NCBI GenBank assembly: GCA_002269645.1
Contig: NIVC01002167.1
Location: 1-30,630 of the forward strand
Origin: Macrostomum lignano
Lineage: Eukaryota
Length of the DNA stretch: 30,630 nt
Direction: 5' to 3'
Below the pieces are notes generated by a model, which was not told the origin of the DNA, did no database searches, and was given only the letters and a program-made list of their open reading frames with translations. Each line of letters opens with the position of its first letter. Positions within the stretch are counted from its first letter, which is position 1. The translations under genes and the position numbers were made by a program. This document shows positions 3,443-30,570 of this stretch, one piece after another.

Positions 3443-5030
3443 TCAATAGTCACTGTCAGCTTTAGAAACGTCAATAACCGTTAATTCAGTCACGGCTTCT
3501 AGCAAAATCAGGTTTTCAACCGGCCGGCGAATCAAGCATCTCCTGGGTCCGCGGCCTGGCCTTTGCGCGACTCGAACTGTTGCCGATCTCACTCGTCTCG
3601 TCCCGGATGCACTGCCTCTATAATGCAAGAACACCAAGTGAGCCTCGGTTGGCCAGCTTCGCCTTTCACCAGGACGATGTCACCGACCGTCGCCTCTCCG
3701 ATCACGCCGTGCTTAGGATTGAGCCGATGTTCACGCAAGCTGGTCAGATACTGCCGCTCCCAGCAGTCCCAGAAGGCATGAAGTCTGGCGCGCATTCGCT
3801 TCAGCAGTCTTGGCAACGGTAGCAGAAGATCTGGCGCGCAACTAGAAGTAGGCTCCGCCGTTAGCCGCTGTAACACCAGGAAGTGTGCCGGTGTCAGAAC
3901 TTCTCCTTCGGGCTCGGCATCCACGTAGAGCAGAGGGCGGCTGTTGAGCACCGCCTCCACCTCCATGAGCACTGTCAGCAGTTCGTCCAGTGTTAGACTT
4001 GAATTCAGAAGGGTTTTGGGCAGTGCCAGCTTGATGTCCTTCATCAGTCGCTCCCAGAAGCTTCCTTGCCAGGGTGCGCGTTCCGTGATAAACTGCCAGG
4101 TAATCTTCCGAGTGGCGCAGAACTCCTGAACCTTTTGACTCTCCGATGCTTGCAATATCCGCGCGGCTTTGGCGAATGTCTTAGCGTTATCGCTAATGAG
4201 ACTAGGGATACCTCTCCTTGCACAGAATCGCCTTAGGGCTCTAAGAAGGTCTCAGTTGTTAGATCTGTGAGTTTTGGTGTTCGTTGTGTTGGCTGTTTTG
4301 GGGGTTGGCCTACTCTGGGGGGTTGGACACGCTTTTATTCACCTGAACCTATATCGATCGGAATGTACGCGCGTACATAGTGAATGACAAATATATATAT
4401 CGACTAACTTTGCCTTTGAGCCCTCGTGCTGATTTTTCTCGCAATTATGGTCTTACAGATCGTTCACCAGTTCTAGATGAAGCGCTCGCGTTGCTGCGCA
4501 GGTGAACACTAACATGTAGCCCTTTTCGACAGCAGTGTCTTTTCTCAGCTTGACCGGACCACAGTAGTCGAGCCTGCTCCACTCGAACGCTCTCATTGCT
4601 TTCAAGCGAGATTCTGGCAACGCAGGAACTTGCATCACAGCGAACGGGAGTCCCTGAAGACGCCTGCAGACGACGCATTTTCCAAGAATTGCCTTCACTC
4701 GCTGCCTGCCACGGATCAGCCAAAACTTCTCATGCAGTTTGCAAAGGGTGCTGTGCGCGTCTCGGATGAGGAGAACTTCTAGATGAGTCTTGTTCGGGAT
4801 GAGGATGGGGCAGTCAACAGCTGCAACAACGTTTGATTCTCTCAATCGACCCCGACTTTGGAGCAGACCTTTGCTGTCGAGGAAGAGATTCAGCTGCTTT
4901 GCAAGATCCGTAGATGCTGTCGACCTTTTAAAGTGAGCAATCTCAGCAGAGAAACTCCTTCGTTGTACCTCTTTCAGCCAACGCTCCTTTGCTTCGGACA
5001 CTTCTGCAGCTGTCAAAGTTCCTGCTCGCT
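3443..5030 (-). pseudogene. BEL/Pao integrase region (Zn finger, DDE core, C-terminal domain), frameshifted and split by a solo LTR
   Basis: ORFs 4453-5016, 3589-4155 and 3443-3637. Motifs CVVCRR, RLDYCGP, CAATRALHLELVNDL|TTETFL, ISDNAKTF, APWQGSFWERL, LNSRPL and LTPAHFL. Confidence 0.9.
4266..4457 (-). mobile_element. 192-bp solo LTR inserted in the BEL integrase
   Basis: TG...CA ends (TGTGAG/CTTACA), GATC duplicated at 4262-4265 and 4458-4461, and AATAAA on the minus strand. Removing it restores the codons N-D-L-T-T. Confidence 0.85.
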
Positions 5031-5342
5031 CCTCACTATTCCAGCTTCTTTCTGGCTCATCAGAATGCGGTGGTACTCCTGCAGCAGTGCGGGTTCACAG
5101 CGCAGCCTGCTCAGGTTACTCTAAAGCCTCTCGAATGCCACGTCGTCAACTGTTGTCAAGGCTTTTGTTGTTCCGTGCGTGCAGCAGAGAAGCACTTGCT
5201 CTTTTTTTCTTTCAGTCCTCCTGCCGAAATGGCGTCGGACAAGGAGCCACACAGGAGCCACCCAAGCTGACTGGCTACCGCAACCAGCTCGGTGCTGATT
5301 TCAGAACGATCTATCTGTCCTGTGACAAGGTCATAGAACTGG

Positions 5343-5879
5343 TCAGCTCCTATGAGGATGTTGATGTCTGGATGCTGCTCGCTGCCGATGTCTCAGTCTG
5401 CCAGATCCAGATGTGGGAAGTGATCGCTGCGCAAGCTGTTGATGAGAGCAGATGTAGGGCACTGTGTTGGCGCGCAATGTGAAGGGAGTGACGCCGTCGA
5501 GCTTACGAAGTTGGAAATCGATCTTCTCCGTTTGCACGACCTTGGGCTTTGTGCCTCCAAATGTCGTCACTTCCATTGTTTCTTTGCCTATCACACAGAG
5601 TCCCATACGCTCAGCTACGCCCGACAGGATGAACGAACGGTTGCTCGCAGAGTCGAAGAGAATTCGAACCCGTGTTTCACTGCAGCCATCTGGTGAAATC
5701 AGTACAGCTCCCGCGGTGGGAAGAACCACTGTCTGGACCTTGGTGACCATCGCCATTGTCTTTACTTCGTGGCTCTTGACACTCTGCGTGGCCGACTGTT
5801 CGAATTTCTTCTTTCCTGAACCCGCCGTATCGAAGTTGCAACTAGGCGTCTTGTCTGCCGGTCTCGGTGGCTGTTCCAC
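5343..5879 (-). pseudogene. BEL/Pao aspartic protease region
   Basis: VVLPTA...RVRILFDSASNRSFI...TTFGG, with D-S-A in place of D-S/T-G. Frameshifted downstream, where DIDILIGADQFY and SQLGWLLCG are read in another frame. Confidence 0.85.
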
Positions 5880-5927
5880 TCGCGCAGCGCAGAGACTGGG
5901 ATGATGCTTTAACTTGCAGAAGTCACA

Positions 5928-7125
5928 CTACTTCTTTTGATAACAAGTCTTTGTGGCATGACCTTTAGAGAGGCAACTGAAGCAGCGTCTTTGTTCTTTC
6001 AAGAACTGAAGCCTAGCAGGCACATCCACCAGTCGATTGCAACTCTCCGGAGCATGTTCAGCGTCACAATAAGGCTCTGGCTCTGGCGACCTTCGTAGCC
6101 TTCGTCTGCAAAGCAGATACCGTGCCTTCCTTGGTTTGCCTGTCAACAGTGGAAGCCTCTGATGAACTGGCTGCTTGAACTCCTGCTCCGAAAGCCGCTT
6201 CCTCTCTAACCAGGATTTCAAGTCCAAGACATTGAGGAATTCCTTGATCGAATCTAAGCCGTTCTCATCCGTCACCTGTAGCTGACTGACACCATAGAAA
6301 GGCCGTAAGGCAACCATCCTGGCAGTTCTAAGCATCCCGAGACGGACCACTTCGTATGAAGCAACGTACACTCACCCCGAGATTCTCCAGGCTGCGGACA
6401 TTGCCGTTGACTTGATCGTGGAAGTTTCTGAGTTGGTGGACTGAAGCACCTGAACAAGTCAGCGCCGAGAACTTCGCCAGATGCTCGCGCACGGCTCCAC
6501 TCCGGGATCCAAACCGTCGTTGCAGGTTATCGATCTTGTCGATCTTATCGATCTTGTAGTTCTCGGCTGTGATTTTACGGCCGGCGATCGAATTCTTGGC
6601 TTCTCCTGAAAGGCACGATTGCAGGTAGCTAAACTTTTCGACGACGCTGAGGCTCGGGTTGTCGTGGATGCTGGAGCTGAAGCGGTCCCAGAATGCAGTC
6701 CATTGCGTCCAATCTCCATTGAATGCTGGCGGCGGCAGCCTAATGGCCGGCGTAGTCGTCAAAGCAGAATTCTCTCGCGGTGACGTGGATGGAGTTGACT
6801 TTTTCGTTTGCTGTTGATCTTTAGCCTGCATGCGGCTTTCTCGCTCGGCCTGAAGACTCTGCAGTCGCTTGGCAAGACTCGAAATCATCTTCCCAGCCAG
6901 TAGCTCTCACTCCATCGTCTTCTCCACTTACTCTTGGAGTATTTTCTCGTCGATCTCAACGGACAGCTCTTTATCCGCTGCCAGCAGCTGTTGCTTCTTG
7001 AGGCGCAGGGCTTCCAGTACGCTGTCGATGTCTTCCTCAGCAGCCCCTGAGTTGAGCAGGTCTTGGGCTTTCTGGGCTAATCTGGTGACCGTCGCTCTCA
7101 AAACTCCACGCTTTTTGGAGCCCAT
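5928..7125 (-). pseudogene. gag: BEL/Pao gag (N-terminal coiled region, central domain, CCHC zinc knuckles), frameshifted
   Basis: ORFs 6928-7155, 6328-6888 (FNGDWTQWTAFWDRF...EKFSYLQSCLSGEA) and 5928-6371 (CDAEHAPESC, CFSCLSKGHATKTC). Confidence 0.9.
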
Positions 7126-7198
7126 GCTGAACTGATAAGAAATCGGGTGAGTCACTGTAGAACTATAGAGCCAATACTTTCACTTTACTTTGATTTTA

Positions 7199-7210
7199 GT
7201 TCGGGCGCCA
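7199..7210 (-). promoter_or_regulatory. Primer-binding site complementary to the 3' end of tRNA-Lys
   Basis: TGGCGCCCGAAC directly after the LTR end CAACA. It equals the first 12 nt of the tRNA-Lys3 PBS used by HIV-1 (TGGCGCCCGAACAGGGAC). Confidence 0.8.
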
Positions 7211-10100: not shown

Positions 10101-12335
10101 TCACCAGAAGTGACACTTTTTATCGTTAGCCAAGTACATTGGATCTCCCGGCTTGCAGTTGAACACCCTGGCGAAGTCCTTCGACTGCATCACCTGGCCG
10201 TTCACTCTGGGATGCGGTGGCGAGTGAGAATAATTTTTTTGTCGAGAAATCAGAGCATCCATTTCCGCCTTGGTGCAGTGCAGCTGGGCCTGCTGGATGA
10301 AGAACAGCTGATCAGGTGTCAGGCCTGCCAATTTCTCTCCTGGAAGCATCTGAGGCCGATTCCCAGACTTCAGCAATTTTGCTGCTCTGTTTCTGTAGGC
10401 TAGGAAAGCGGAATTGGTGCCAACAATATCGGCAAAATTTTCATCAAACTTTTGAACCTCTGCTTCCGTTTCCTCTTCCGAAATTTCGGATTTCGCGAAC
10501 TCAGGATCGATGATCTGGCTGTAGAAATTAGCCAGACAGTCAGTTTTATTGCCGTACCGCAGCGCTGTGACATTGTCAAATATACGTTTCTGTTTGTTTC
10601 CAACACTAAATTTACTGACTAATCTATCGCAGCCGTGCCCGACCTCGTGGCCGATTATGTAGCCGACGCCACCGTACAACAGGTAGTCAGGGTAGCCCTT
10701 CATGTAAATTTTGCTGAGCAGCAGGCCAAAGTAGATAAAAATCGAATTGTCGTATGGTGAATAATGAGCGTTGACAGTAAACATTCTTGTAAACATATCT
10801 TTTGGCATCATGTCCTGTTTGTCAGCTGTCGCAATCCAAAGTCGATTCTGAAGCTGAGTGCTTTTAAACTGCAAAACAACATCTCCAAATGTTCTGCTTT
10901 GATTAACTTGAGCAGCAACTTTTGAGTAGCCTTCGGTGAACTCGGACATGTTGAACTGGGGGTAGCCGACGGTGCTCCGCATGGCATCGATTCTCTTCTT
11001 AATTGCTGCCTTACTCGGCTGCTCAATCCACGCCTCGCTGTCCACATTCTCCCACATGGCCTCCTTGATGTCGCCGATTACCACTTTCACTGAGTTGAAG
11101 TCGTCTGTGACGAAGGCGCTGCTGAACATCTGCAAAGCCACTGGCGGCATGGAGCCCAGCATCATGTCCATGCACAGTCTCGAGCTGTTCCGGCCTTCTT
11201 TCTCATGAATGAGATACTTTTGTTGCCCGAAAAGGTTTTTAAAGAATTTAAACGATTCGTCTGGAAGAAAATTTGCTGCCGACAGTGCAGAGTCCAGGCG
11301 AATAAAGTCATAGTAGGGTCCCTGTCTGTGCTCCAGCTCCGTTGTGAGCTGCTCGAGTACAAAAAATAATAGCGGGTACCTAATAATTTCAACTTTCATT
11401 GAGGGAGGTAACTTATTGGCTGAATACTTGCTCACAGCGCTGTAAAACTCCGTCCAGTTAAAGTTGAGATTTTCTGCCTCAACCTGAGTAAAATTCTGCA
11501 GCTGTTCCAGATGGTAAGGACCAACTTTCAAATACGATTCGCCTTTGTTTAACATTTGCTGAACTGCAGGCTTCATCTGATTTATACTAACAGTCAAATT
11601 CAGGTCTATGAGATCACTGAAATCTTCTAATGCAGAAATTCCGTCATTGAAAACATGATTCCAGGATTTCAGGGTAGATAGGTAGTATGGTGACGAGTGC
11701 AATCTCAGACTCCGCTCCACCGAGCCTGGCGACAATCTGAACAGATCCGATGTACCGGATATCACCAGTCTCGCTAGGAAGTCTTCAATGCCTGAGTAGC
11801 CCTCTAGAAAGTCCAACAAAGGTCTCACTAATGATTTCATGTCGAAAGGTCGTTCTCCAGTCTGCCAGCTGTTCGGGAGAAATTCCTCTTTCTTAGAATT
11901 CAGAACGCTGGAGCCGCGCCAATCCATGCAGGTCCCGTAGATGTATCGCAGCGTCTGGAACAGCTGCGCTTCGCTTGCGTCTCTGGGCTTGGACAAGTTC
12001 TTGAAGTACATCATCTCAAATAGATTTCCTTGAATGGAGTTGTCCTCCTGTAGTACTGAGCCCACGGTCTCGGCAGTGAAGGGGTGGCTTTTATGGAAAC
12101 CGCCGCAGGCGAAGCTGTAGAAGTCTTGGCACGGGTCCGCGGAACGGTCGATGTGGCTCTGCAGCAGTGCGCTTGCACTTATGCAGGCCTCGCTGGTGCA
12201 CAGGCTGGGCTGCTTGGGAGTGGCTGCTGTAGATAGCAGTTGGCCGGTAGCTGCTCCAGGTGGTAACCGAGCTGTGCTGAGAGCGTAGAGCAGAACGAAA
12301 GAAGCAGAAACGAAAGTACCGCTATTGCCAGGCAC
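10101..12335 (-). CDS. M13-family zinc metallopeptidase (neprilysin/ECE-like), uninterrupted frame, 5' end uncertain
   Basis: ADPCQDFYSFACG, VNAHY, HEVGH (HExxH), ENFAD (ExxxD), HSPPHPRVNG and C-terminal CHFW. The track's start codon is GTG, and the first ATG is codon 108. Confidence 0.95.
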   Translation of the reverse strand: MPGNSGTFVSASFVLLYALSTARLPPGAATGQLLSTAATPKQPSLCTSEACISASALLQSHIDRSADPCQDFYSFACGGFHKSHPFTAETVGSVLQEDNSIQGNLFEMMYFKNLSKPRDASEAQLFQTLRYIYGTCMDWRGSSVLNSKKEEFLPNSWQTGERPFDMKSLVRPLLDFLEGYSGIEDFLARLVISGTSDLFRLSPGSVERSLRLHSSPYYLSTLKSWNHVFNDGISALEDFSDLIDLNLTVSINQMKPAVQQMLNKGESYLKVGPYHLEQLQNFTQVEAENLNFNWTEFYSAVSKYSANKLPPSMKVEIIRYPLLFFVLEQLTTELEHRQGPYYDFIRLDSALSAANFLPDESFKFFKNLFGQQKYLIHEKEGRNSSRLCMDMMLGSMPPVALQMFSSAFVTDDFNSVKVVIGDIKEAMWENVDSEAWIEQPSKAAIKKRIDAMRSTVGYPQFNMSEFTEGYSKVAAQVNQSRTFGDVVLQFKSTQLQNRLWIATADKQDMMPKDMFTRMFTVNAHYSPYDNSIFIYFGLLLSKIYMKGYPDYLLYGGVGYIIGHEVGHGCDRLVSKFSVGNKQKRIFDNVTALRYGNKTDCLANFYSQIIDPEFAKSEISEEETEAEVQKFDENFADIVGTNSAFLAYRNRAAKLLKSGNRPQMLPGEKLAGLTPDQLFFIQQAQLHCTKAEMDALISRQKNYSHSPPHPRVNGQVMQSKDFARVFNCKPGDPMYLANDKKCHFW

Positions 12336-12388
12336 ACAGACAGACGTCTAATTCGCTCGTGTAGAGTTGAACTCTCAACTCTAACGCA

Positions 12389-12760
12389 AGTAGTATAGGA
12401 AAAGTAGGTTTGAGCGCAACCCATTTTGAAAAATCACAAAAAACAGATAAAAATCGACTAAAAACAGGTGAAAATTGTCTGAAAACAGTGATTTTAGTGA
12501 TTTTTCAAAAGTTTCGAAAAATTGCTTTTTGCGCGATTTCGTGAGTAAAATCACAAGAAATTTTTGATTCGTGGGTTAAAATAACCTATTTTCAGGTTTC
12601 ATCATTTCAAAACTAGCATCAAATTTAATAATAGTCTTTTCTCCCATTGCATAACGCCCTTCAATAAGCCAATCTTACTAGCTTTGCTTTTAACGATCAG
12701 TCAGCTACCATCTATGCATAAAAATTGTCCACTCGAGGCATACAATGCTTTTACAAAAGT
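12389..12760 (+). repeat. Left terminal inverted repeat, diverged, including a dead copy of the PLA2-integrase 5' end
   Basis: Aligns by eye with the reverse complement of ~29230-29615 (GACTAAAAACA.GTGAAAAT.GTCT.AA.ACAGTGATTTTAGTGATTT) and of ~29990-30285. The ATG equivalent reads ACG near 12652. Confidence 0.8.
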
Positions 12761-13614: not shown

Positions 13615-14973
13615 ATGGCCTTCAGTAAACCATTATTTCTAGGTTCTGCATTGGATATTCAGTCAGCTATAACAAAACTACCACCCATCTTCGCCACTGG
13701 AAAATATCCTGGCGAATTTCATATTCCAGGGTATTCTTTCACTGGCCCAGGTACAAATTTAGACAAGAGACTCAATCCAATTACAGACTGGCCTCGGTAT
13801 GATAGTCTACCAATTAATCCAATTGATTGGACTGCTTACTATCATGACAAAAGCTATAGAGATGCTGAAAAGACGTCTTCAACTCCAGAGGAAGCCCTAG
13901 CAAAGAAGCATATTGCTGATGAAAAAATGATAGCTGATTTAGATGCTATTCCAACCAGCGACTTGTCGGTAAAGGAGAGACTCATTAGAAATCTAGTAAA
14001 GCGTATTATCAATGCTAAAGTTCGGTTTGGATTAGGAATTCATACTCACAACCCCAACAATTGTATAGACTGTCTAACAATTTATGGTAAGGGTCTTAGC
14101 TATGAAGATGCAGTAAAATTGCATAGGGAATACAGAAAGCCAAGAGTATTTAGAAAAATGATTCACTATGCAAAAGACACAATTTGGCATGCAGATATCA
14201 TTATCCTACCGCCCGAAAGAGGTTACAAATATGCTCTCACTATCATAGATGGTTTTACACGTTACGCCTGGGCAGTTCCTTTGAAAACAAAGACGGGAGC
14301 GGAAGTTGCAGAAGCTTTCCAAAAAGTATTTAAGGAATCAGGAAGACGATCAGAGAGACTTTGTGTAGATGAAGGCAAGGAGTTTTATAATCAGCATATG
14401 TACAAGCTATACTCGTTTTCAAAAGACAACATTAGAAAGAAGGATGAAAGGGGTGAATATATTAACAAGATGTTTTCAATTTATGGCGAGTCCAAGAATG
14501 CAATGATTGAGAGGTTCAATCGTACTCTCACAAATAAACTCTGGTTTGAATTTGATCTACAGGGTAATCAGAAGTGGCTCCACACATTGCCAGCTATTGT
14601 TGAAAAATACAACAACACAATCCATTCTGAGATTCTGATAACTCCTTCAGAAGCATCTAAACATCCTGAGCGAGTACCAAAGCCAACTTTCGAGTATTCA
14701 AATGAGAAACCAAACTTCAAAGTAGGTGACAAAGTTCATATCTATAGATATAAGGAGCACTTTGAAAAGGGTCGAAGAGGATATTGGAAAATTTCAGAAG
14801 TGTTTAGGATAAAGAAAATAGTTTACTCCAATCCCATAACCTACATTATTGAGGATGAGAATGGAGAAGAAATCATTGGATCATTTTACAAATCCCAGCT
14901 TCTACCAGCAAATTTTTCAACTAAAAATGAGCGCCTATCGAACAAACTGCAAACGGGCGAAAGGTCAGATTGA
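13615..14973 (+). CDS. Parvovirus-type phospholipase A2 domain fused to a retroviral-like DDE integrase
   Basis: PLA2: PGYSFTGPG, INPIDWTAYYHDKSY. Integrase: WHAD, TIIDGFTRYAWAVPLK, CVDEGKEF, MIERFNRTL and C-terminal FKVGDKV...PITYIIED...GSFY. One open frame of 452 aa. Confidence 0.92.
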   Translation: MAFSKPLFLGSALDIQSAITKLPPIFATGKYPGEFHIPGYSFTGPGTNLDKRLNPITDWPRYDSLPINPIDWTAYYHDKSYRDAEKTSSTPEEALAKKHIADEKMIADLDAIPTSDLSVKERLIRNLVKRIINAKVRFGLGIHTHNPNNCIDCLTIYGKGLSYEDAVKLHREYRKPRVFRKMIHYAKDTIWHADIIILPPERGYKYALTIIDGFTRYAWAVPLKTKTGAEVAEAFQKVFKESGRRSERLCVDEGKEFYNQHMYKLYSFSKDNIRKKDERGEYINKMFSIYGESKNAMIERFNRTLTNKLWFEFDLQGNQKWLHTLPAIVEKYNNTIHSEILITPSEASKHPERVPKPTFEYSNEKPNFKVGDKVHIYRYKEHFEKGRRGYWKISEVFRIKKIVYSNPITYIIEDENGEEIIGSFYKSQLLPANFSTKNERLSNKLQTGERSD

Positions 14974-15349
14974 AACGTCTGATTCACAACTACTAGCTGA
15001 TAAAGAGGGTGAAGGAATTGGTGATATGATCAGTGGTGTCACAAACTTTTTATCAAATCATGGAAGTAAAATTGTGAGTGGAGCTGATGCAATAGGTAAA
15101 ACAGCTACCACAGCGAAGAACATATTCGATGCGAAGAAATCATACAGTGACATGTCTAAAGCAGGTGAGGAACTGGAATATATTAAAAAGAAACGTAGAG
15201 ATAAAGAAGCAAAGAAAAGAATGGAAGAAGAGCAACAGATAGCTTCTCAATCAAATAAGGCTATTCAAGATATTGTTAAAAAGGCTCTAGGAACAGCAGA
15301 ACAGTCTCAAGTGTCTTTGAGACAAGGCAATGGTTTGAAGAAATTCTGA
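14927..15349 (+). CDS. Small putative virion core protein (140 aa) with GxG motifs
   Basis: ATG at 14927 in TAAAAATG context. EGEGIGD followed by an amphipathic-looking segment, a basic KKKRRDK patch and C-terminal QGNG. Sits in the structural gene block. Function inferred. Confidence 0.6.
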   Translation: MSAYRTNCKRAKGQIETSDSQLLADKEGEGIGDMISGVTNFLSNHGSKIVSGADAIGKTATTAKNIFDAKKSYSDMSKAGEELEYIKKKRRDKEAKKRMEEEQQIASQSNKAIQDIVKKALGTAEQSQVSLRQGNGLKKF

Positions 15350-15357
15350 CCTTAAAA

Positions 15358-15810
15358 ATGAGCGAGAAAAACACTGAAGCAAGACTCAATCGATATGTTC
15401 GAGAGGGAAAACCAAGATATGTTACTGTAAATAAGCAAAAGCAATATCTTTCTAAAGAGAAGATTCGAGAATTGCAAGAGAAACAGAAAGAACATGAAGG
15501 TGGAATAATTCCTCTATTAGGCTTACTACCAGCAATTTTGGGTGGTATCGGAGCAGCCTCAGGAGTTGGTACAATGATTGCAAAAAGTGTTAATACAGCC
15601 AACAATGCTAAACATAATAAGACAATAGAAAGCATTGAACGGCAAAAACTAGAAGAGTTGAAAAAGGCTCAAGGGAGTGGAGTATTAGTTGATGCGGCTA
15701 AAAGAGTCGAACAAGTACCCAGCGAAGCAGTCAAGTGGCTGCTAAAGACGTTTAAAGTTGAAAAGGAGAAACAGGGTAATGGGATAATTCTTAGACCTCA
15801 TGAAGCTTAG
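15358..15810 (+). CDS. Putative core protein with an adenovirus pX-like GG-hydrophobic segment
   Basis: Basic N-terminus, then EGG|IIPLLGLLPAILGGIGAASGVG, resembling the pX C-terminal GG|FLPLL-type segment. Also QGSG and QGNG motifs. Confidence 0.65.
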   Translation: MSEKNTEARLNRYVREGKPRYVTVNKQKQYLSKEKIRELQEKQKEHEGGIIPLLGLLPAILGGIGAASGVGTMIAKSVNTANNAKHNKTIESIERQKLEELKKAQGSGVLVDAAKRVEQVPSEAVKWLLKTFKVEKEKQGNGIILRPHEA

Positions 15811-15830
15811 TTGAAATTTCTCTTATAAAA

Positions 15831-17192
15831 ATGGAGAACAAAAAGGATATACTGAGCATATATGAGGACAAAACTTTTAGCTTTTTCAAAAAGAAAGAAG
15901 ACTATATTAAGATTTCTCCAACTCCAGGTAGCACTAATAATCTCAATGTTGCAGGAGGTCAAATAGTTCATGAAGTCAATTCAACAGAGTCATACATTCT
16001 CATGTCAGAGGCATTCGGTTGTATAAAATACTCAATAACACAACGAGATAACACCGACTTGAATACGAACATTACTCTAGAACATAATTGGCCTATGAGA
16101 CTTTTCTCTCAACTCATAGTTGACATTGGAGGAACAAAGAAAGTCTATAATGATCCTGGAGAGTATGACACAATCTTAAAGTCCGTAATGTACTCAAAAT
16201 TAATGAATGAAGTTGGAGAAGCATACGGATGGATTCCAGACACTGGAGATGCTGGGACTGTTTCTGATATACCTCTAGCAAACAACGCAGATGCTGAAGC
16301 TGTGAGAACTGCAGCAATCGCTATGAAAAATAGACTCAATAAGAAGGATTCGAATACTGGATACATTAGGAGGCTTGAAAATTATAACAATGTCACTAAT
16401 GCTCCAAACAGAGGTGGAACAATCAAACTATCATTAACACCCTCATTGGGTTCCTTGATTGGCAGAAGATTAGCAAAGGAATTAAATATAAATTCACATG
16501 GACAAGAAAGACTAACGATGCTGAAATTTTCTTTGGAGCTGCCGGGACGGAAGCTAAGTTAACTATTAATAGCTTTGAGATTTGGATCCCTGCTATTACT
16601 TTGTCACCCAGTGCTGAAGCAGCTTTTCTAAAATCACTCAACAAGGACATTACAGTATCATTTCCAGAGAGGGTAACGGTTCCGCCACAACTCATTCAAG
16701 GAAGTCCATATACATGGAACATAGCCAACATCTCCAATATGCCACTTGCAATCTTTGTAGCTTTCAAATATGACGTAAACAACCCATCATATATAGTTAA
16801 TGATCACAAGTATGTGTCTTACAAAACTGGAGCAAATGCAGTGAAAATAACCCAGCTTCAAGTCAGATTAAATCAGGTGATGTATCCGAATGATTATGTT
16901 GAAATTGATCCAGTAGCTCAAGACATTCACAGAGCGTATGAAATGTACGAAGACATCTGCAGCCGTTTCGGTGTAACTCCTCCATTCAATAAACAAGACT
17001 TTCTAACCATCTATCCAATCTTTTGCTTTGATCTAACAGCTCAGATGAGTTTCTGTCAAGAGTGGAGTGAATATTCAATTATTTATCAAGAAGTCAACAA
17101 ATGTTGAGCTGACTGCTTTTGCACTAATTCTTGAACAAACAAAGAATGTAATAAAAGTTACCAGTGAATATCAAATGACCCGCGTCGAATAA
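15831..17192 (+). pseudogene. Double-jelly-roll major capsid protein, two frameshifts (~16447 and ~17045)
   Basis: LNVAGGQI, NWPMRLFSQLIVDIGG...DPG, GW; bridging frame FLDWQKI...FEIWIPAITL; ITQLQVRLNQVMYP, RAYEMY, YPIFCFDLTAQ. The third frame ends ...YQMTRVE* at 17192. Confidence 0.85.
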
Positions 17193-17213: not shown

Positions 17214-17987
17214 ATGCCCAAAGTAAAATTTCAGCATGATCCTATTTTCCCTAATCCTCTTTTATGTTGTATTATCGGCGCTACAAATACGGGTAAAACA
17301 TATTTACTATTCCATATTCTTACAAGTCCTGAAAAACTAGTTGACTTTAATGAGTTAGTTTTATATGTTCCCAGAGCATCTCAAATGGATCCAGAGTATC
17401 AGTTTCTAAAATATGGCTTTGAAAATGGTCTCCCACCTTCTCTTATCAACTCACTCTATCATGTCTACCAGGTGAGTGAGGATGCATCTCCTGAAGATAT
17501 TAGACATATTTGTCGAGAGGCAGCCAACCCTGGTCGAGTGCAAAGCACATCAGAAAATTCAGAAGTAATAGAGAAAATTCCTGTCACTCTTTCCCATACT
17601 CCAAATGAAGAAATTTTTCATAATGGACTAAAGACATGTGTGATATTGGATGATGTTTTGGGAGAGGCTAATCAAACATTTCAGGAAAGTCTGTTTCAGA
17701 GAGGCAGGCATGGAAACTGTTGTGGTTTTTATCTAGCTCAAAATTTTACCAAACTAGATCGCAATACTGTCAGGGAGAATACGACATGTTACATAATCTT
17801 TAAACAAAAAGATACAAACTTGAATCACATTGCTAGAAATATAGAAACGAATTATGAACCCGCTATATTCAAGGCTAAATGTAGAGAGGCTTGGAAAAAG
17901 AAGTATGGCTATATCTATATAAATACAAGAGCTGATGAGGATGAGCAAGATTTGTATAAGGATGTTCTAACTAAAATCCCATTGTAA
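17214..17987 (+). CDS. A32/FtsK-like genome packaging ATPase
   Basis: Walker A GATNTGKT, Walker B CVILDD, GRH motif and LAQNF. Intact 257-aa frame. Confidence 0.93.
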   Translation: MPKVKFQHDPIFPNPLLCCIIGATNTGKTYLLFHILTSPEKLVDFNELVLYVPRASQMDPEYQFLKYGFENGLPPSLINSLYHVYQVSEDASPEDIRHICREAANPGRVQSTSENSEVIEKIPVTLSHTPNEEIFHNGLKTCVILDDVLGEANQTFQESLFQRGRHGNCCGFYLAQNFTKLDRNTVRENTTCYIIFKQKDTNLNHIARNIETNYEPAIFKAKCREAWKKKYGYIYINTRADEDEQDLYKDVLTKIPL

Positions 17988-17989
17988 AA

Positions 17990-18717
17990 ATGACTAATGA
18001 ATATATAAGAGAACTCATTAATTTAGCAAAGCAGCGAGAAATGTACAAATCCAGAAATGATGCTCAACGCTATTTGAAAATTGGAGAAGAGAGTTTATAT
18101 GCAAGAGTGGCTCCATTAGCTCAAAAACCTGTCACAGAAAAGCTTGATGAATTTATTGATGTCAATGCCAACCTTGTTGATAAACTTCAGAATCAAAAAG
18201 TTCCAGTTCCGCAATCAAGTACACCAAAAGGACGATTTGAACCTCTGGAAGTATTTGACAAAATAATTGAAGAAATTGGAAAGATTCCAATAACTCAAAG
18301 ACCAGCACTAGTATACGAATTCAAAAAACTGATGCTGGATATATATTTGGATCATCTGTAATAGATGTTGAATTCCATGAACAAGGTCGAGACATCATTG
18401 TCAACGAATTTCGAATGCCATTTTCTGAAGATCTTGAAGAGTTGTTCAAAATGCCTAAAGTAACTGAAAATGGTGAAGAGCTGAAGCAATTCAAGATGCA
18501 AACATTGCAGGATTATGTTAACCTCATTGAACATTGTAAAAATCCAGCGGCCAAATCAAGTGGGAATTATAAGCAAGCAGTAAGGATATTGAAAGATAAT
18601 CCACCAGGATATCGAGTAAAACCGGGATCTGGACTCAGTGAAAGAGTGTTGACATTACTAGCCGCAAGCAGAGGACATAACAATGTTGATAAAGAGCTAG
18701 CAGAATTACTTGCTTAA
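17990..18717 (+). pseudogene. Conserved Polinton structural-block protein, one frameshift (~18340)
   Basis: ORFs 17990-18361 and 18415-18717 join through GSSVIDVEFHEQGRDIIVNEF. The N-terminal YLKIGEE...KPVTEKL and C-terminal GSGL...LLAASRGHNNVDKEL resemble a recurrent Polinton ORF. Exact family name not assigned. Confidence 0.6.
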
Positions 18718-18719
18718 AA

Positions 18720-19496
18720 ATGGAAAAAGAAATAGAAAAAGTCAACATCCTCTTGAGTAAAAAGTTTCAACGCACATTTGACTTCTTTTCAATTAAAAAC
18801 CCATTTCGACAAACTCTAGGCACTCCTATAAATTTGTATGAAGATCGAGAATACGAAGCTGGTATAAAAAAGTTTGCAGTCTTTGATGCTATTAACAATA
18901 TTGAAGGAGTTGCGATACTCGAGGGATAGTGGTAGAACATGGAAAAATAAAGATTCAAGCAGGGTCTTGGGAAGTTAAAAGTCTGTCAAGCGAGATTCAA
19001 AGATTGCTAACAGCTGCAAATGATTGGAAAGAGGGGGCTATTGTTTTCAGTGCAAGCCTAGACACGCGTAGAGTTGAGTTACGGTTAGCCACAGATTATC
19101 AAGTTGATTTCAGGGATGCACATTCCAATAACTTTAGAAGACTGTTGGGATTCAATTCGGAAGTGTATTTGAAACCATTTGAGAGAGCTCCAAATCCAGC
19201 TCGGATAGACGGAGCTAGAAGTGCGATCATGGTTCGTTGTCTAAATATCAAAGGGGGTTTATCACTGATCCAGCTAATGGAAATCATTTAATTGATAAGC
19301 AAATACTTCTTTCAATTCCATCGTTCTCTGTCCCAATGGGAAGTAAAATTATTCAAGAGCCGCAAATCCTGTGTACCTACCACTAACTACAAACATGTTG
19401 AGCACATTCGACTTTGTCATCGAAGATGAGTCTGGTGTTCTATACGACTTTGATGGCGAGGAAATATTTATAAATCTTCACATACGACAAATATGA
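18720..19496 (+). pseudogene. Minor capsid protein (penton, single jelly roll), at least four frameshifts
   Basis: Fragments INNIE, RYSRDSGRTWK, IQAGSWEV, LLGF, VRC, VPMGSKIIQEP, VYLPL and EDESGVLYDFDGEEIIINLHIRQI* in changing frames. Confidence 0.8.
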
Positions 19497-19505
19497 GTGT
19501 TAAAA

Positions 19506-19934
19506 ATGAGCGAAGCTGAGACATGGAATGCATTTAAACAAAAGTTTGGACTGACACTACGACTAATATTGATCTGATAAATTGGGCAAAATATCTCAAG
19601 TTAAAACCATTTCGCTATGCCATGAGAGATGAAATTGTTGATTTACCACAGTATGGTTACTTTATGACAAATATTCACACTTCGAAAGAACGGGGTATAC
19701 ATCATTCAGCTATATTTTCAGCTCCTGATAAGGTTTATTTTTTTGATTCCTATGCACTACCCCACACTGGAAATTATGGAAAAGTTTAATCACACAAAGA
19801 ATAGAATATGTGGAGACATGGAAGAACAAATTCAAACTTTTGATAAGAAATTTTGTGGTCAAATGTCGCTGTACTTTTTACACCGAATCGATAAAGGAGA
19901 TAGCTATAATGAAATTTTGCAGCAATTAAAATGA
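19506..19934 (+). pseudogene. Adenain-like cysteine protease, frameshifted
   Basis: TNIDLINWAKYL, NIHTSKERGIHH (catalytic His), YFFDSY (Asp), QIQ...FCGQ (oxyanion Gln, catalytic Cys). At least two frame changes. Confidence 0.85.
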
Positions 19935-21310
19935 GTTACAAGAATACTGCCAATCAATTTGGTTACTCGTCAAATTCAAATGATATAGCACCTGGAATAA
20001 CAATAGCGTTAGCTGATGATCGATACATCAATGAAAATGAAGGATATAAGAGAGAGGAAATAGATAATTTATTGTTAGCAAAGAGAAATGTTTCAGACTC
20101 TTATTCAAAGGAAGATAGTGACGCAATGAATATCACCATGCTACAATTAATTGACGATGCTCATGGGCGCGTAAACAATGTCTACACAAAAACCGAAACT
20201 GACACTAAGATGTATTCTAAAACTGAGATTGACACTAAGATGTATTCTAAAACTGAGATTGACACTTTGTTAGCAGAAAGGCAAGGTACTGTGCGGGGGT
20301 ACAAGAGTTCGAAATTAGTCAATATTCTTTCATTACTGACTTCAAACGCTTCCCATCCTGACATGAAAGTGACCGCTTCTCATAACTCTTCAGCAGCATA
20401 TCATGTTGCAGATTCAAACCCAGCTTCAGAATGGAGCAGTGTAGATGACTCAGACAAGTGGATACGATTTCAATTTTTGAAAAGAGCTAGGAAAGTTGTA
20501 GAGATAAAGTTGGAAGGAGAGGTGTGGCCTGGTTGGTCTGTTAGTGTGAGCCTAAATGGAACAAACTGGACACCTGTTGAACAAAGTGCACCCATTGAAC
20601 TACGAAGGGGCAATGCACATCTTAGGAAAAAAATACCCAATCCCTCATATTATTTCCATTATTCTCTTAATTTTTCTGGTTCCGTAAAGCTTACAAAAGT
20701 TGAATTACTTGAGAGACAAACAGTGGTTAATGATTTAGTGTGGCCTATAGATAGACTTCAAGCTGTACCAAAGCTATACGTAGACAATGCACTTGAATCA
20801 GTGGAGCTGCGACTAAGGCGGGGACTAGGTTTCAAATCTTATACAGGATATATTCCCTCACTAGCAACACGTCAAAACTATAGAGAAAGGGGTTTCAATG
20901 TAGCGTCATCAGGAGCATTTGAAACGTCAGATAATTGGGGTTATGTAGTATCTAATTCAGAATGGGCATCGAGGAATGAACCCAATTCTTACATTGAAGT
21001 ACAACTTCCCGAGTCTATTCAAATTTGGAAATTCGGATTGAAAGGAACCAAAGCAGTAGGTAGTGAAATTATAAAAAATCAACCAAAAAGTTTTATTCTA
21101 AAAGGTAGCAATAACAAGAGAGACTTTAAGAATATTTTTTCTACCGAAAACGCTGGTTTAGTTCCTGGAGTGATGAAGTATTTCGAAGTAGCTTCCACCG
21201 AAAAATTCTCCGTTTATAGAGTGCATATTAATTCGGCCACTGAAGGATCAACTGTTCTTATAGTTTCAGGCTTTCAACTTTATCCGATTTTAGACATAAT
21301 TGCCACATAA
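19931..21310 (+). CDS. Putative fibre/spike: tail-fibre-like repeats plus two discoidin/F5-8C-like beta-sandwich domains
   Basis: Five Y(S/T/K)(K/R)xExD repeats, including a perfect 30-bp duplication at 20201-20260. Two modules of the type TAS/ASS...EW...WI/YIxxQ(F/L)...GSN...W/F. Intact 459 aa. Confidence 0.65.
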   Translation: MSYKNTANQFGYSSNSNDIAPGITIALADDRYINENEGYKREEIDNLLLAKRNVSDSYSKEDSDAMNITMLQLIDDAHGRVNNVYTKTETDTKMYSKTEIDTKMYSKTEIDTLLAERQGTVRGYKSSKLVNILSLLTSNASHPDMKVTASHNSSAAYHVADSNPASEWSSVDDSDKWIRFQFLKRARKVVEIKLEGEVWPGWSVSVSLNGTNWTPVEQSAPIELRRGNAHLRKKIPNPSYYFHYSLNFSGSVKLTKVELLERQTVVNDLVWPIDRLQAVPKLYVDNALESVELRLRRGLGFKSYTGYIPSLATRQNYRERGFNVASSGAFETSDNWGYVVSNSEWASRNEPNSYIEVQLPESIQIWKFGLKGTKAVGSEIIKNQPKSFILKGSNNKRDFKNIFSTENAGLVPGVMKYFEVASTEKFSVYRVHINSATEGSTVLIVSGFQLYPILDIIAT

Positions 21311-22385: not shown

Positions 22386-25300
22386 TTATTTGAATCCATG
22401 AGGATGTGTTATAATTCCATTGGATTCAATGTATCTTTTGTCATCGAAAGGACTAATAGCCTTCTTATTTTGTTCTATTAAAGTCATGTTATGCTTGTCT
22501 GATCTAAGGCTATACACTTTCCTATAGACTGGTTCGTTATAATCAAGTAGTATATTTCTATAGTCATCATATTGTACATGATGCTTCACTGTTGACTTTG
22601 AGATTCCCTTTAATTTTTTCTCTTCCTTCCCTTCCTTTTGAGTGCTGACATAAACTGTTTTAAATGAATATGCTTTCGATCTTAGAGCGGTTACTTCTGT
22701 CATTATGCAATCATATTTTGCCAATTCATCCTTGAATGTTCCCAGCTTTCCACAATTAGTCATATCATGTAAATCAATCGGAAGATTTTTTGTATACAGC
22801 GACAAATCGAAATGCTCCTTCATCTGAGCAATGTCTTTATAAATATTTTCTGTCTTTATATGAAGAATGAATGAGTCGGTGTCAGAGGTAACAATCTCAA
22901 CATTATCCCCCCATTTGGACTTGAAAACTTTGTAAAATGTTTCATACATATGCAATTTCGAGAGATCCAGAATTGCTTGTCCAGCGTATGTTGGCTTTGT
23001 TCCAAGAGGGATATTCTTAGGTCGCTGGTGAATGCAAATTAGATTTTCATTGAAGATTTTGAAGTCTATGAAATCTGGCTTGGATATTATCTTAGATATC
23101 TCATCCTCACTTGTCAGCAACTCAAATCGCTTTCTCTTTTTAACATCCTCCATTGTCTTGCCAAAGATGCTTACATTAAGCATTTTGAACTGATTGTCTT
23201 CGAACTCAATTTTTGCTTCTTTTGCCTTCTTTCTTTCTATCGTATTAAACTCGATATACTCCTTTAACCATGGCTTTTCATTGAATGAAATCGTCCTATG
23301 TACTTTTGTCACTTTCAAGCCCATCTCTTCATAGAATCGCAATAGCTTATGATGTACGATATATTTTGTTTTATTTTTTAAATTAAGGATCAATTTAGGA
23401 ACTTTTCCAATCTTTTTCATTTCGACTTCTAGACATCCTTTCTGATATTCACTCAATTCACTTTCTGACACAGTTGTACTTTCAGGTGCTAATGGGAAGG
23501 CATACGTTTTCTTTTTTGATTCTTTTGTATATTCAAGATCACATTCAACAAGACAGCCCCGTCCTTCAGGAGGATTTTTATAATAGTTGGAATCAGCTTC
23601 CCATTTAGTCAGAAAAAGGAAGGGGTTCCAACATACTATAACCATAGAGATTTGTACAATCAACGTAAAGTAAGTAGGAAGTTGGTTTTTCTAAATCATA
23701 GCCTGGAAGATAAGGATTATTTGCCTTTACATATCGTGACCCTAGAACTCCGCTAAATCCACCTCTTATTCCACTATCAATCATATGAATCATATCGATA
23801 TCCGCCAGCAAGTCTAACTCAACTTTACTTTTCTTCAACCCAGCATTCCAACTCAATCCTGGTGCTGAGAAGCATCTGGCTGGATCAATCTCAAAGTGTT
23901 TCAGGAAGAATGTTCTATAGCGTTCGAATACATCTGCTAATAATAGAACGTCAACCTTAAGATACAGCATCATATAATCCTCCAAATTCTTACAATTAAA
24001 AGTTTTCCACATTTGTTTTGCAAAATCATATTCATCTGAAGAAATGTCTTCACCTTTCAACCTCGAGTAAAACTCTTTCAATGGTGGTAACTCAGTTTCT
24101 GCTAATCTTCCAAAGCTTCTGATATACTCATATGGGAATACACCCTTGCGCTTAACATATTGAAAATCGCTGTCGTTTTTAAAGTATTTCTTTGTTATGA
24201 TGAAGTCTTCATCCTTCAGGGACTTTGCGCAGATATCCAGCGAGGAAGCCAAGAACCTGTATGAATCTAGGAACCTCAGTACTACTTTGTTACATCCAAA
24301 CTCGAGAGAAATGTACTCTTCAGAAGTTTTAGATAGTGGAGGAAATAATTTATCCTCCATGATCTCTTTGCTCTTTAAGTGTGTCACTAAGAAGTGAAAG
24401 TCATAGTGGGATCCATTCTGGAAGTAGATTGGGATTACTCGCTTCTTACTTTCGAGAGCATTGCAGGATTTACAGGCAGCCCCTCTATATTTGCCACTAT
24501 AGTGACAATGTTCTCTTACCTTACCTAGCTTAAGTGTGAAGTCATTTTTACAATTCGCACATTTTTCAGCCCTGTAAAACTCTTTCCATTGTTGCTTTGT
24601 GATCTTATATTTACTTATATTATTGCTCTTGTTCAGACATTTTTGCACCAAGATTCTATAGTAACTTTACTGTCAATTTCCTTCACATGCACCTTCATAT
24701 CTGGAACCATATCAAACTCCTTCTCGCATATGTAGCATTGTTTAGCCTTACAGTAAGAAGCCTCCTCTTGCGCTGTCAAATTATGATTAATATGCTTAGG
24801 CTCCTTCAGACCATTCTTAATTTGTTGATGAATTTCAACCATTCTATCAACATATTTTTCCTTGGCATCTGTGCCACAATATCCTTCATACTTCGATTTA
24901 ATTGTTGTTTATAGTTTATAGCTCGTACTTTTAGTACTTTATATAGTAATTGTCAGATACATAATATTGATTAATATTGTTAATGCAAATAGCTGTGCGT
25001 ATCCCTTTCTAGAAAGTTCAATAAATATTCAATACAGTATCGTACCGATATGAACTAACAACCATAGATACACAGGAGCAAATAGCTGTTGAAAAAGCTG
25101 TTGAAAAAACTTCAACATTAATTACCTCGGGTAACTCAGAATGGATATAAAAACCGTAAGCTATTGCGTTCTGATTTGCTACTTTTAGAGTATATGACTC
25201 TTTGTCTAAAATCTTAGTGAAGCTTTTACTTTGTGCTTCAATGGGTTCAGTTGTTGCTTCAAAGTCAGCATAGATAGCGATGGGTAGCTTTAGTTTGAAT

Positions 25301-26430
25301 ATATGATTTTTAAATTTCAGCTTCGATTCTTCCTTAGGTAATTTATAATGACCAGGTGCATTTTTACCGCACAACCTTGAGTGCTCGGCCAACACGGTTT
25401 CACTTGTGTAAACAGTCATGCATGTTCTGCATAAAAATGACTTGTGATTTACACGCTTTCCAGTTTGTTTTGAAACTAATGTTGTAAGATTTTTTATCAG
25501 ACAATAATGAGTCTTACCATCTTCCTCCAAGTATAGTAAATCTACTACATAAGTTCGTTGATTATGAGGTGAGACATAGAGATGTTGTAGTGTATCTGGG
25601 AATTTACCTTCATAATACAGCACATTAACAGCAAACTCTTCATTTAGTCTTTCAAACTTTTTTATATCTTTTATTCTCATGGGGAATTGGATATCGGTGA
25701 GATTAAGTTCTTTTTCATATGGTTTATATTTTGACACTCGATAACCATCTTTATTTTGTGGATGTTTAACAGCTAATACACACCAGAGGAAGCATTTCTC
25801 ATCATCATTCTGAATGTTAAGAATTGATAGACATTTTTTAACTTCATTGTTAGTAAAGAAGGATCCTCCCTGAATGCTAGAAACCTTGGCAACTCTGATG
25901 TAGATAGATTTTATCTGCACAAAGACATTATCTGATCCCTTCTCACAGAACTCATCAATGAACTTTTCCAATATCTTCTGTCTTTCGGTAAGGGCAGCGT
26001 CATACTGTGAATCTGACTGAATATTGTAGAATCCACTTTCATTGTCATAGACTGTGAATGGAGGAATGTCTTCGTTAAAATTCTTTTTGAATTCTAGTTC
26101 AAAATGCAAGTTGAACTTACTCCGTCCACCATCTCTAACTTTCTCCAACACTGCTTTAATTGCATCTTCATACTGAATAAAAACCTTTGTTATATAACCT
26201 TCATTAACATTCCTAATGACGTACTCTGAAATTTCTGACTTCTTATTATACTTCTCTCTAAAGGATTTATGTAGTATTATTTCATCACCAATCTGCGGAG
26301 CTGCCACTTCATCTTCTTTGGACTCCGCTATAGGCTCATTATCTGTGTGCTTTTGCTGCTGACGCCGAAACCGCTCAGCTTGAATGTATTGTTCAAATTC
26401 TTCATCACTCATCTTTCTGAGTTGTTCCAT
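22386..26430 (-). pseudogene. polB: Protein-primed family B DNA polymerase, split by a solo LTR and two frameshifts (~24650, ~23607)
   Basis: ExoI IYADFEA, EndoVII-like REHCHYSGKYRGAACKSCN, ExoII QNGSHYDFHF, ExoIII YLKVDVLLLADVFE, Pol A YVDCTNLYG, Pol B KMLNVSIFGK, Pol C SDTDS, plus KAY, KGI and DDKR. Confidence 0.95.
24903..25117 (+). mobile_element. 215-bp solo LTR inserted in PolB
   Basis: TGTTG...CAACA ends, TTAAT duplicated at 24898-24902 and 25118-25122, and AATAAA near 25020. Removing it restores ELPEVIKSKYEGYCGTDA in frame. Confidence 0.88.
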
Positions 26431-26540
26431 TTTTTATAAAATAAATTTAGCAGGAAAATTATGTAATGACGTTATAAATTTATTGTGGCATCCACACGAT
26501 TAAGCAATTAGAAATGTATAAGCGATATTACAATAGGCAG

Positions 26541-26953
26541 AAAAAGAACCAGATACTGCAGTATTCGATGTGAAAAAGCAGCGAGCAAAAAAGAACCAGA
26601 TACTGCAGTATTCGATGTGAAAAGCAACGAGCAAAAAAGAACCAGATACTGCAGTATTCGATGTGAAAAAGCAACGAACAAAAAAGATCCAGATACTGCA
26701 GTATTCGATGTGAAAAAGCAACGAGCAAAAAAGAACCAGATACTGCAGTATTCGATGTGAAAAAGCAACGAGCAAAAAAGAACCAGATACTGCAGTATTC
26801 GATGTGAAAAAGCAACGAGCAAAAAAGAACCAGATACTGCAGTATTCGATGTGAAAAAGCAACGAGCAAAAAAGAACCAGATACTGCAGTATTCGATGTG
26901 AAAAAGCAACGAGCAAAAAAGATCCAGATACTGCAGTATTCGATGTGAAAAAG
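26541..26953. repeat. Tandem array of nine ~47-bp units, each with the 12-bp palindrome ATACTGCAGTAT
   Basis: Unit AAAAAAGAACCAGATACTGCAGTATTCGATGTGAAAAAGCAACGAGC. Nine palindromes counted. Units are near-identical, with no spacers. Confidence 0.97.
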
Positions 26954-27013
26954 AATAGTCAGCATAATGAGAGTCAGATGTTATGATTCACAACGCGCGC
27001 AATAAGATTTTCG

Positions 27014-29229: not shown

Positions 29230-29615
29230 AAATTGTATGATGCTATATGAAGTTCTCCTGGGTATTTGCCAGTGGAGAAAATCTAAGGCAGTTTTTTATA
29301 GCTAACTGAATGTCTAAAGCAGTTCCTAGAAATAGTGGTTTATTGAAGGCCATTTTATGACGAAAAAAGTAAGCAAAATCAAATTTGATGACAGTTTCAA
29401 ATTGTTTACACCTGAAATGGCATTGAGATGAACCAACGATTCCAAAATAACTATTTGGTTTTAGTGCTAGAATTGTGTAAATGGCACTTTTTCAAAATTA
29501 TTAAAAAATAAATCACTAAAATCACTGTCTTAAGACCATTTTCACATGTTTTTAGTCATTTTTCAGTGAATTTCATGGTATGCTCTGCGCTTAAACCTAC
29601 TTTTCCTATACTACT
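29230..29615 (-). repeat. Right terminal inverted repeat (inner), including a frameshifted copy of the PLA2-integrase 5' end
   Basis: Ends ...CCTATACTACT. Minus-strand ATG at 29353 begins MAFNKPLFLGTALDIQLAI before a frameshift. Confidence 0.8.
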
Positions 29616-29907: not shown

Positions 29908-30285
29908 TCAGAGCTGTTGGCTTGCAAAAGAATACCCTGGTATATGAAATTCGCCAGGATACTTTCCAGTGGAAAAGATGGGTGGTAGTTTTGTTATAGC
30001 TGACTGAATATCTAAAGCATTTCCTAGAAATAATGGTTTACTGAAGGCCATTTTATATATATAAAATTTACTATTGTTAAATTGGATGACACTTTCATGG
30101 ATGACATACTTGAAATTGCATTAAATTGACCGTGAATCCAACTTTTCTCATGGTTTTAGAGCTGGAATCGTGAAAATTGCACTTTTTCAAAATTTTTGAA
30201 AATCACAAAAAATCGCTGTTTTCAGACCATTTTCACCTGTTTTTAGTCATTTTTCATCTTGTTTTTAGTGATTTTCAAAATGAGT
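29908..30285 (-). repeat. Second right-hand terminal module with a 47-codon copy of the PLA2-integrase 5' end
   Basis: 30051 to 29908 encodes MAFSKPLFLGNALDIQSAITKLPPIFSTGKYPGEFHIPGYSFASQQL*, about 9 mismatches in ~127 nt versus 13611-13737 by hand count. Its upstream sequence aligns with the left TIR but lacks the AGTAGT tip. Confidence 0.85.
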
Positions 30286-30471: not shown

Positions 30472-30570
30472 AGTAGTAGTATGTTATAAGGGCTGAGTCA
30501 TCCAGCGAGCTGGCGCGCAATGCGCCCGAGCAATCAAGTGTGGCGCAGCCCCTTATAGCATACTACTACT
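30472..30570. mobile_element. 99-bp AGTAGTAGT-capped inverted repeat (mini-Polinton-like element or hairpin terminus)
   Basis: Left arm AGTAGTAGTATGTTATAAGGG-CTGAGTCA pairs with the right arm, whose reverse complement is AGTAGTAGTATGCTATAAGGGGCTGCGCCA. No TSD seen. Confidence 0.7.

Follow-up and report, generated by a model that had tools for sequence, protein, structure and literature searches.

A PLA2-integrase fusion gene of a Macrostomum lignano Polinton belongs to a widespread family with a conserved glycine motif at the domain boundary

The window analyzed here, that is, the whole 30,630-nucleotide stretch of Macrostomum lignano DNA, contains an intact gene in which a parvovirus-type PLA2 domain and a DDE integrase are joined in one open frame. 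Our main finding is that this fusion is natural and widespread, and that its domain boundary carries a glycine motif conserved across the fusions. The best reading, which we hold to be probable from sequence comparison and analogy, is that the product is a polyprotein that the element's protease would cut at GxG, the integrase being packed alongside the entry lipase. The gene is composed of the following features (a slash within a motif marks a cut, here and below):

13615-14973, forward strand: intact PLA2-integrase fusion ORF, 452 aa in one open frame
13714-14031, forward strand: parvovirus-type PLA2 domain, residues 34-139 (Pfam PF08398, VP1 profile matches, Foldseek)
14017-14040, forward strand: boundary motif K-V-R-F-G-L-G-I, primary candidate protease site with predicted cut GL/G (conservation across fusions)
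14035-14091, forward strand: 19-aa spacer with H-x-H-x4-C-x2-C between both GxG motifs (clade-specific; low model confidence)
14080-14097, forward strand: second GxG motif I-Y-G-K-G-L, secondary candidate, which would trim the integrase N-terminus (GxG in closest clade)
14101-14910, forward strand: rve integrase, first helix 163-169, D194/D252/E299 (Pfam, AlphaFold model, motif reading)

A preliminary description had read a PLA2 (FTGPG, H77-D78) and a DDE integrase in a single open frame. Both are indeed present at 13615-14973, where Pfam places PF08398 (PLA2-like) at residues 34-110 (E 1.3e-8) and rve at residues 186-262 (E 7.1e-10) of the 452-aa product, each above its curated cut-off; no Chromo match at E<=0.1 was obtained with Pfam in this query fusion (P0001). 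The PLA2 part has the feature set of the parvovirus type, namely a Ca-binding GxG loop (FTGPG, residues 42-46, 13738-13752), an HD dyad (H77-D78, 13843-13848), and a downstream Tyr and Asp (Y81 and D102). Its profile matches parvovirus VP1 chains (best E 8.5e-5), and its Foldseek matches are mostly VP1 of parvoviruses and densoviruses; rice PLA2, the top VIA-align row (Z 7.3, rmsd 4.8, 95 aligned), is level with unrelated rows. Fold matches of the integrase comprise retroviral (including foamy-virus), MELD-virus and mavirus integrases. The AlphaFold model of the fusion (pLDDT 85, pTM 0.63) shows a helical PLA2, whose last helix spans residues 119-139 and ends at G139, and an integrase opening with helix 163-169, while confidence is low in the linker (pLDDT <50 at 141-149 and 154-156). 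This linker holds, as described earlier, HTH-x4-CIDC (residues 143-153) followed by IYGK/G (156-160, 14080-14094). It has no Met, and an integrase with the conserved first helix must therefore derive from the fusion.

Relatives of the full-length fusion numbered 409 among 3077 candidates, and both domains were matched in 91 of the 120 relatives listed. The survey for in-frame fusions that the preliminary description had proposed gave a clear answer: when two protein searches were pooled, PLA2 stood ahead of the integrase in 123 of 269 fetched proteins, query included, a figure that query choice and a length filter tilt toward fusions and that is not a prevalence. One of 124 double-match proteins was left out, its PLA2 match lying after the integrase, and two of the 123 have no alignable linker, so that linker motif counts, which were anchored by alignment, refer to 121 sequences. 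Of 84 loci read as DNA, 26 carry the fusion in frame, nine carry PLA2 as a separate gene, four are of the fusion type but broken (two of these in the linker), and the rest have the integrase alone. The PLA2 residues H, D, Y and D are retained in 106 of 109 fusions, the integrase DDE in 119 of 119, and the second Gly of the Ca loop in 59 of 109. Some fusions bear an added N-terminal DUF5679, a C-terminal chromodomain, or both (P0070, P0074, P0077, P0083, P0091, P0200). Scans of viral contigs gave no relative with P0001 and A2, and one weak locus with P0074. A search for shorter PLA2 proteins, itself weak, returned two matches among 23 candidates, both fusion fragments, and an equally weak search for longer forms returned one match, integrase only.

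Contigs from 4 of the 20 sequencing runs carrying sequence were compared with the gene; their listed indels all fall outside 13868-14215, and the substitutions listed at 13987-14134 for the contigs of these runs, read by hand, create no stop; a frameshift or stop between the domains, one of the results named beforehand as sinking the idea, is absent from the listed linker variants of 4 of 20 runs. Such contigs show presence only, and one of the contig records listed spans both motifs. Indels within one or the other domain occur in some divergent contigs, and no RNA run is found among the 24 listed runs carrying window sequence. On an integrase tree of 81 hand-picked rows out of 234, built by a quick method with SH-aLRT and with no bootstrap or AU test, fused and unfused integrases intermingle, with 15 label changes, four of them forced by strongly supported branches; 'solo' labels on this tree may be gene-calling truncations. 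Fusion or splitting was therefore repeated in evolution, and the tree gives neither its direction nor its number.

Directly past the last PLA2 helix lies K135-V-R-F-G139-L-G141 (14017-14037), which the preliminary description had missed. G139 is present in 119 and G141 in 104 of 123 fusions; K-x-x-hydrophobic-G-x-G occurs in 95 of 121 linkers and any GxG or GG in 108, the other 13 having neither. After pruning to <60% identity, the full motif remains in 24 of 34 linkers, compared with a mean of 2.3 and a maximum of 7 in 2000 shuffles under a null in which the first Gly was fixed and the rest shuffled. P4 at this conserved site is K in 96 and R in 12 of the 123 fusions. The IYGK site on which attention had been drawn lies 19 residues further downstream. 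IYGKG is the sole match to the adenovirus consensus in the protein (chance per 31-aa window 2.4%, 20,000 shuffles), but it is not conserved, which is among the outcomes that the preliminary description had named as refuting: three of the 123 fusions have I156 and eight have G158, the adenovirus consensus is found in 14 of 121 linkers (5 of 34 at the boundary after pruning), and P0003 is devoid of residues equivalent to 156-160. In the closest clade the second GxG is kept in 9 of 10 sequences, and M, I or L at P4 in only 4 of 10.

The spacer between the two GxG motifs, with its His/CxxC pattern (His/Cys part 14041-14073), is found in 9 of the 10 closest sequences and was not seen in other linkers; it is possibly a metal site, or a redox-active peptide set free between two cuts. 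Its assignment as a retroviral HHCC zinc finger was set aside, as the spacing of that finger is unlike that of the spacer and the spacer is confined to one clade.

The fusion is the first gene of an element of about 17 kb that is a Polinton/Maverick by most tested features, with AGTAGT and ACTACT ends (12389, 29615); the Maverick end motif is (AGT)2 in the text of PMC8097293 available to us. Genes for a pX-like protein, capsid, ATPase, probable minor capsid, protease, fibre-like protein and polymerase follow 3' of the fusion; in this copy the capsid, minor capsid, protease and polymerase genes are disrupted:

12389-12418, forward strand: left end, starting AGTAGT (repeat search; Maverick end motif)
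14927-15349, forward strand: small ORF with two GxG-hydrophobic motifs (ORF list, motif scan)
15358-15810, forward strand: pX-like core protein, separate gene (37% identity to the L026 protein)
15804-17107, forward strand: major capsid protein, split over two frames (PF21738 DJR, E 4e-11; tblastn)
17214-17987, forward strand: A32-like packaging ATPase (PF04665)
18693-19493, forward strand: probable minor capsid protein, in pieces (tblastn to the matching L038 and L001 genes)
19538-19934, forward strand: adenain-like cysteine protease, split over two frames (tblastn with the intact L001 and L026 proteases, E 8e-11; protease profile)
22386-26433, reverse strand: protein-primed DNA polymerase B, several pieces (PF03175, E 6.6e-12 on one piece)
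29586-29615, reverse strand: inverted copy of the left end, finishing ACTACT (30-nt inverted repeat)

The pX-like protein has a GG and two GxG motifs placed as in its L026 relative, which gives a weak Adeno_PX match (E 9e-4, below cut-off). The minor capsid protein is named from size and position, its own pieces giving no Pfam family match and its L001 and L038 counterparts being unnamed. At window positions 19913-21310 (forward strand) an intact ORF encodes a fibre-like protein that has F5/8 type C (discoidin) domains and a single R-R-G-L-G-F motif. Between the flanks of the 12389 and 29615 ends we found no 6-bp target-site duplication, and a short derivative may be the source of the right end. 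On the reverse strand, at 29245-29615 and 29927-30285, lie two short decayed derivatives that retain the left end of the element and 110-145 nt from the start of the fusion gene. Contig depth peaks over 13621-13790, and loose ends occur at 13612 and 13739; a large number of truncated copies would give this pattern. Tandem arrays are found at 26480-27000 (47-nt unit, upstream of the polymerase) and at 2220-2890 (20-nt unit), and a 99-nt element with inverted ends starting AGTAGTAGT at 30472-30570. The left side of the element adjoins a neprilysin-like (M13) peptidase in one long frame (10101-12347, reverse strand). Further off, at 3500-7200 on the reverse strand, is a broken LTR-retrotransposon remnant with DUF5641 and rve pieces, which we take to be BEL/Pao-like. 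Together with the peptidase gene, this remnant points to an animal host.

Several comparisons bear on whether the boundary motif is a cut site or a helix cap. The same K-x-x-hydrophobic-G-x-G also ends PLA2 in stand-alone PLA2X genes, followed there by a basic spacer and pX (L002, L003, L005-L008). Just ahead of the integrase helix, GG or GxG is found in all six protease-integrase fusions (5 of 5 proteins, and L009), while among unfused integrases with extensions it occurs in 9 of 69, three of which resemble cut-off fusions and five of which have an unrelated N-terminal motif. P0108, which is fused to PLA2, groups in a single clade (SH-aLRT 99) with P0168 and P0269, which are fused to the protease; after their different partners, the three have the sequence from the GxG onward (GxG-I-x-W-T) in common.

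Beyond the fusions, GxG-hydrophobic, a pattern picked after viewing the window and held fixed for later loci, is enriched in the window's 21 ORF pieces (9 versus 2.7 expected, P 0.0015). Its matches are in small core-like and fibre-like proteins and in one predicted membrane protein, with none in the MCP, ATPase and polymerase pieces of the window. In 39 other genes of nine fusion-type loci it occurs 29 times versus 6.8 expected (0 of 1000 shuffles), and in 54 genes of six PLA2X-type loci the enrichment is weak (12 versus 5.9, P 0.022); these site counts are not independent, and homologous or repeated sites in pX-like proteins raise them. Outside the PLA2 end, K is at P4 in 18 of 54 GxG sites. 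The form [KR]xGxG is enriched in fusion-type loci (11 versus 3.3), and is not in the 54 other genes of the six PLA2X-type loci (3 versus 3.1). Since the adenovirus-type pattern is also enriched in fusion-type loci (19 versus 9.5, P 0.001; GxG-only form 9 versus 4.9, P 0.059), P4 specificity is left ambiguous.

Modules are joined in other combinations as well. Protease-integrase fusions (L009:2740-4248, P0107, P0118, P0141, P0168, P0269) fall in at least two separate places in the integrase tree; L034:2182-3483 is a protease-pX polyprotein, and L005:340-1338 and L007:471-1502 have PLA2, pX and protease in one frame. At L041:415-421 and L062:1031-1040 the integrase is in the -1 frame relative to PLA2; an in-register slippery heptamer directly follows the GxG, and the stem downstream of it is modest (z -1.1 to -2.0). 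Such a heptamer is also present in 3 of 22 in-frame linkers, and none is found in the window linker. These two cases, in A-rich runs, may reflect a programmed frameshift, an assembly error or decay, and are offered as a lead only; similar slippage is predicted for adintovirus penton and hexon-protease in the portions of PMC11071296 available to us.

The idea of a polyprotein and of co-packaging, put forward in the preliminary description, gains support from these comparisons and from a mavirus precedent. A PLA2-spacer-integrase precursor would enter the capsid as a core protein and be cut during maturation by the element's adenain-type protease. The main cut would fall past the last PLA2 helix, at K-x-x-hydrophobic-G-x/G (GL/G, residues 140/141), and in this clade a second cut at GK/G (residues 159/160) would remove the 19-aa spacer. 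The predicted products are a PLA2 of 15.7 kDa, the 19-aa spacer and a basic integrase of 34.9 kDa; the freed PLA2 would serve in membrane penetration, and the freed integrase would arrive with the DNA. For the fusion product, we infer cleavage, packaging and lipase activity. Judged by its candidate sites, the protease rule looks mavirus-like (GG/X and GX/G, with a loose P4 that is often K or R) and not strictly adenoviral. As the window copy is decayed and its own protease broken, the model concerns the design of the family and not the activity of this locus.

A two-domain protein that stays uncut is the competitor to which we give most room, while considering it rather unlikely. Here K-x-x-hydrophobic-G would cap the last PLA2 helix and the next Gly would be a flexible hinge, PLA2 being a packaging or membrane-targeting tag and the integrase being active while tethered. 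It is true that helix 119-139 stops at G139, that the K-x-K-L-G cap is common to designed helical repeat proteins, and that the 13 linkers (of 121) lacking GxG and GG retain mostly the first Gly alone. Many linkers are moreover very short, with 13-20 aa from K135 to H170, so that the shortest of 13 aa fit an uncut protein, and short linkers may hide a candidate site. Modelling the L026 protease in complex with the linker of the same locus, without alignments, gave a score of 0.03, which favours neither a cut nor an uncut linker. What an uncut protein leaves unexplained is the second Gly in 104 of 123 fusions, the GG or GxG present when the partner is a protease, and the GxG enrichment in other core proteins. 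The version of the preliminary description, with IYGK/G as the one boundary site that functions and with adenovirus rules applied to it, appears very unlikely: IYGK/G is the only (M/I/L)xGxG in the protein, at the 2.4% chance given above, it sits just ahead of the integrase helix, and a candidate GK/G is on record for mavirus MV13 in the accessible text of PMC6048507, but the site is not conserved across the family, and five of the nine close relatives in which it occurs carry N, S or H at P4.

The precursor might also be cut and yet the fusion merely couple expression, with the integrase acting unpackaged in the producing cell for transposon-like reinsertion. The intermingling of fused and unfused integrases (15 label changes on the 81-row tree, four forced) would suit this account, as would the statement in the part of PMC8097293 available to us that Maverick particles have not been observed. 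We nevertheless judge it improbable, for both integrase partners, PLA2 and protease, are predicted virion proteins, and mavirus packages its integrase, according to the sections of PMC6048507 at hand. Finally, in an element with broken capsid, protease and polymerase genes one may suspect a chance fusion or an assembly error in one decayed copy; with 123 fusion proteins, 26 of 84 loci fused in frame and no linker indel among those listed for four runs, its probability is negligible, and the homolog survey has already refuted it.

Several known systems can be set beside the fusion. PLA2X of adintovirus (Starrett et al. 2021, PMC8502044) is, in the text available, a parvovirus-like PLA2 in an animal Polinton, proposed as a membrane-active virion protein; the PLA2 of the fusion likewise belongs to an animal Polinton and has the same KxxhGxG end, but is joined to an integrase instead of a C-terminal pX-like domain, the pX-like gene being separate. 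That Polintons package their PLA2 for entry had already been proposed (PMC4642659 and PMC8502044, as far as their available text goes), and the words 'cleavage' and 'fused' are absent from the main text of PMC8502044. Unlike adintovirus as defined in the accessible part of PMC11071296, the fusion has no detected C-terminal chromodomain on its integrase; that definition also names an N-terminal OTU domain in PolB and a hexon for which BLASTp recognition is reciprocal. The related cysteine protease of mavirus cuts GG/X and GX/G, including GY/G, and the mavirus virion carries an rve integrase and a predicted hydrolase, the latter in two fragments around GK/G (Born et al. 2018, PMC6048507, available sections). 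In contrast to the fusion, the mavirus integrase (MV02) and alpha/beta-type hydrolase (MV13) are separate genes in these sections, the integrase being packaged without fusion. Adenain motifs of adenovirus and adomavirus are given as (MIL)XGXG or L(LR)GG in the consulted text of bioRxiv 10.1101/341131. The candidate sites described here share with adenain substrates the Gly at P2, the GX/G geometry and the presence of a pX-like substrate in the element, and differ in the P4 of the conserved Polinton site, mostly K or R. We know of no adenovirus with an integrase.

As in parvovirus VP1u, the PLA2 has the Ca loop, HD dyad, Tyr and Asp, along with sequence and fold matches; in parvoviruses it is joined to a capsid protein, and here to an integrase. 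The VP1u sequence match stops ahead of the last helix, so the PLA2 end motif lies outside it. In retroviral Gag-Pol, a virion protein brings an attached enzyme into the particle, and the protease of the element releases that enzyme. The fusion has the corresponding feature of a single ORF joining a predicted virion protein and an enzyme via a conserved protease-type motif and, if the model holds, its integrase would likewise be carried in by a virion protein and then freed by a protease. It differs from Gag-Pol in belonging to a dsDNA element, with a cysteine protease in a separate gene, a lipase as carrier, no RT, and no frameshift in this copy. In the part of the literature that was searched, neither fusion of the integrase, with PLA2 or with the protease, is described, nor is a cleavage motif of Polintons; subscription papers, Repbase, figure maps and preprint supplements may depict the fusion. 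The fusion architecture itself is already in databases, since an automatic JGI label gives both domains on P0091.

A broader proposal can be made, which we regard as speculative and lean against in its full extent. In many Polintons, the integrase would enter virions as part of a polyprotein cut by the protease, a GG or GxG cassette rule would permit the re-joining of virion modules (PLA2-integrase, protease-integrase, PLA2-pX, protease-pX), and in some lineages (L041, L062) the share of integrase may be governed by a -1 ribosomal frameshift immediately past the GxG, which would amount to a full Gag-Pol-like strategy arisen independently in dsDNA viruses.

These results bear on whether animal Polintons spread as particles, and on how their integrase reaches a new cell. 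The repeated fusion of the integrase to two predicted virion proteins via a protease-type motif is genomic evidence for the integrase as virion cargo, and from the motif one can predict by which rule the Polinton protease cleaves and where core proteins end once mature.
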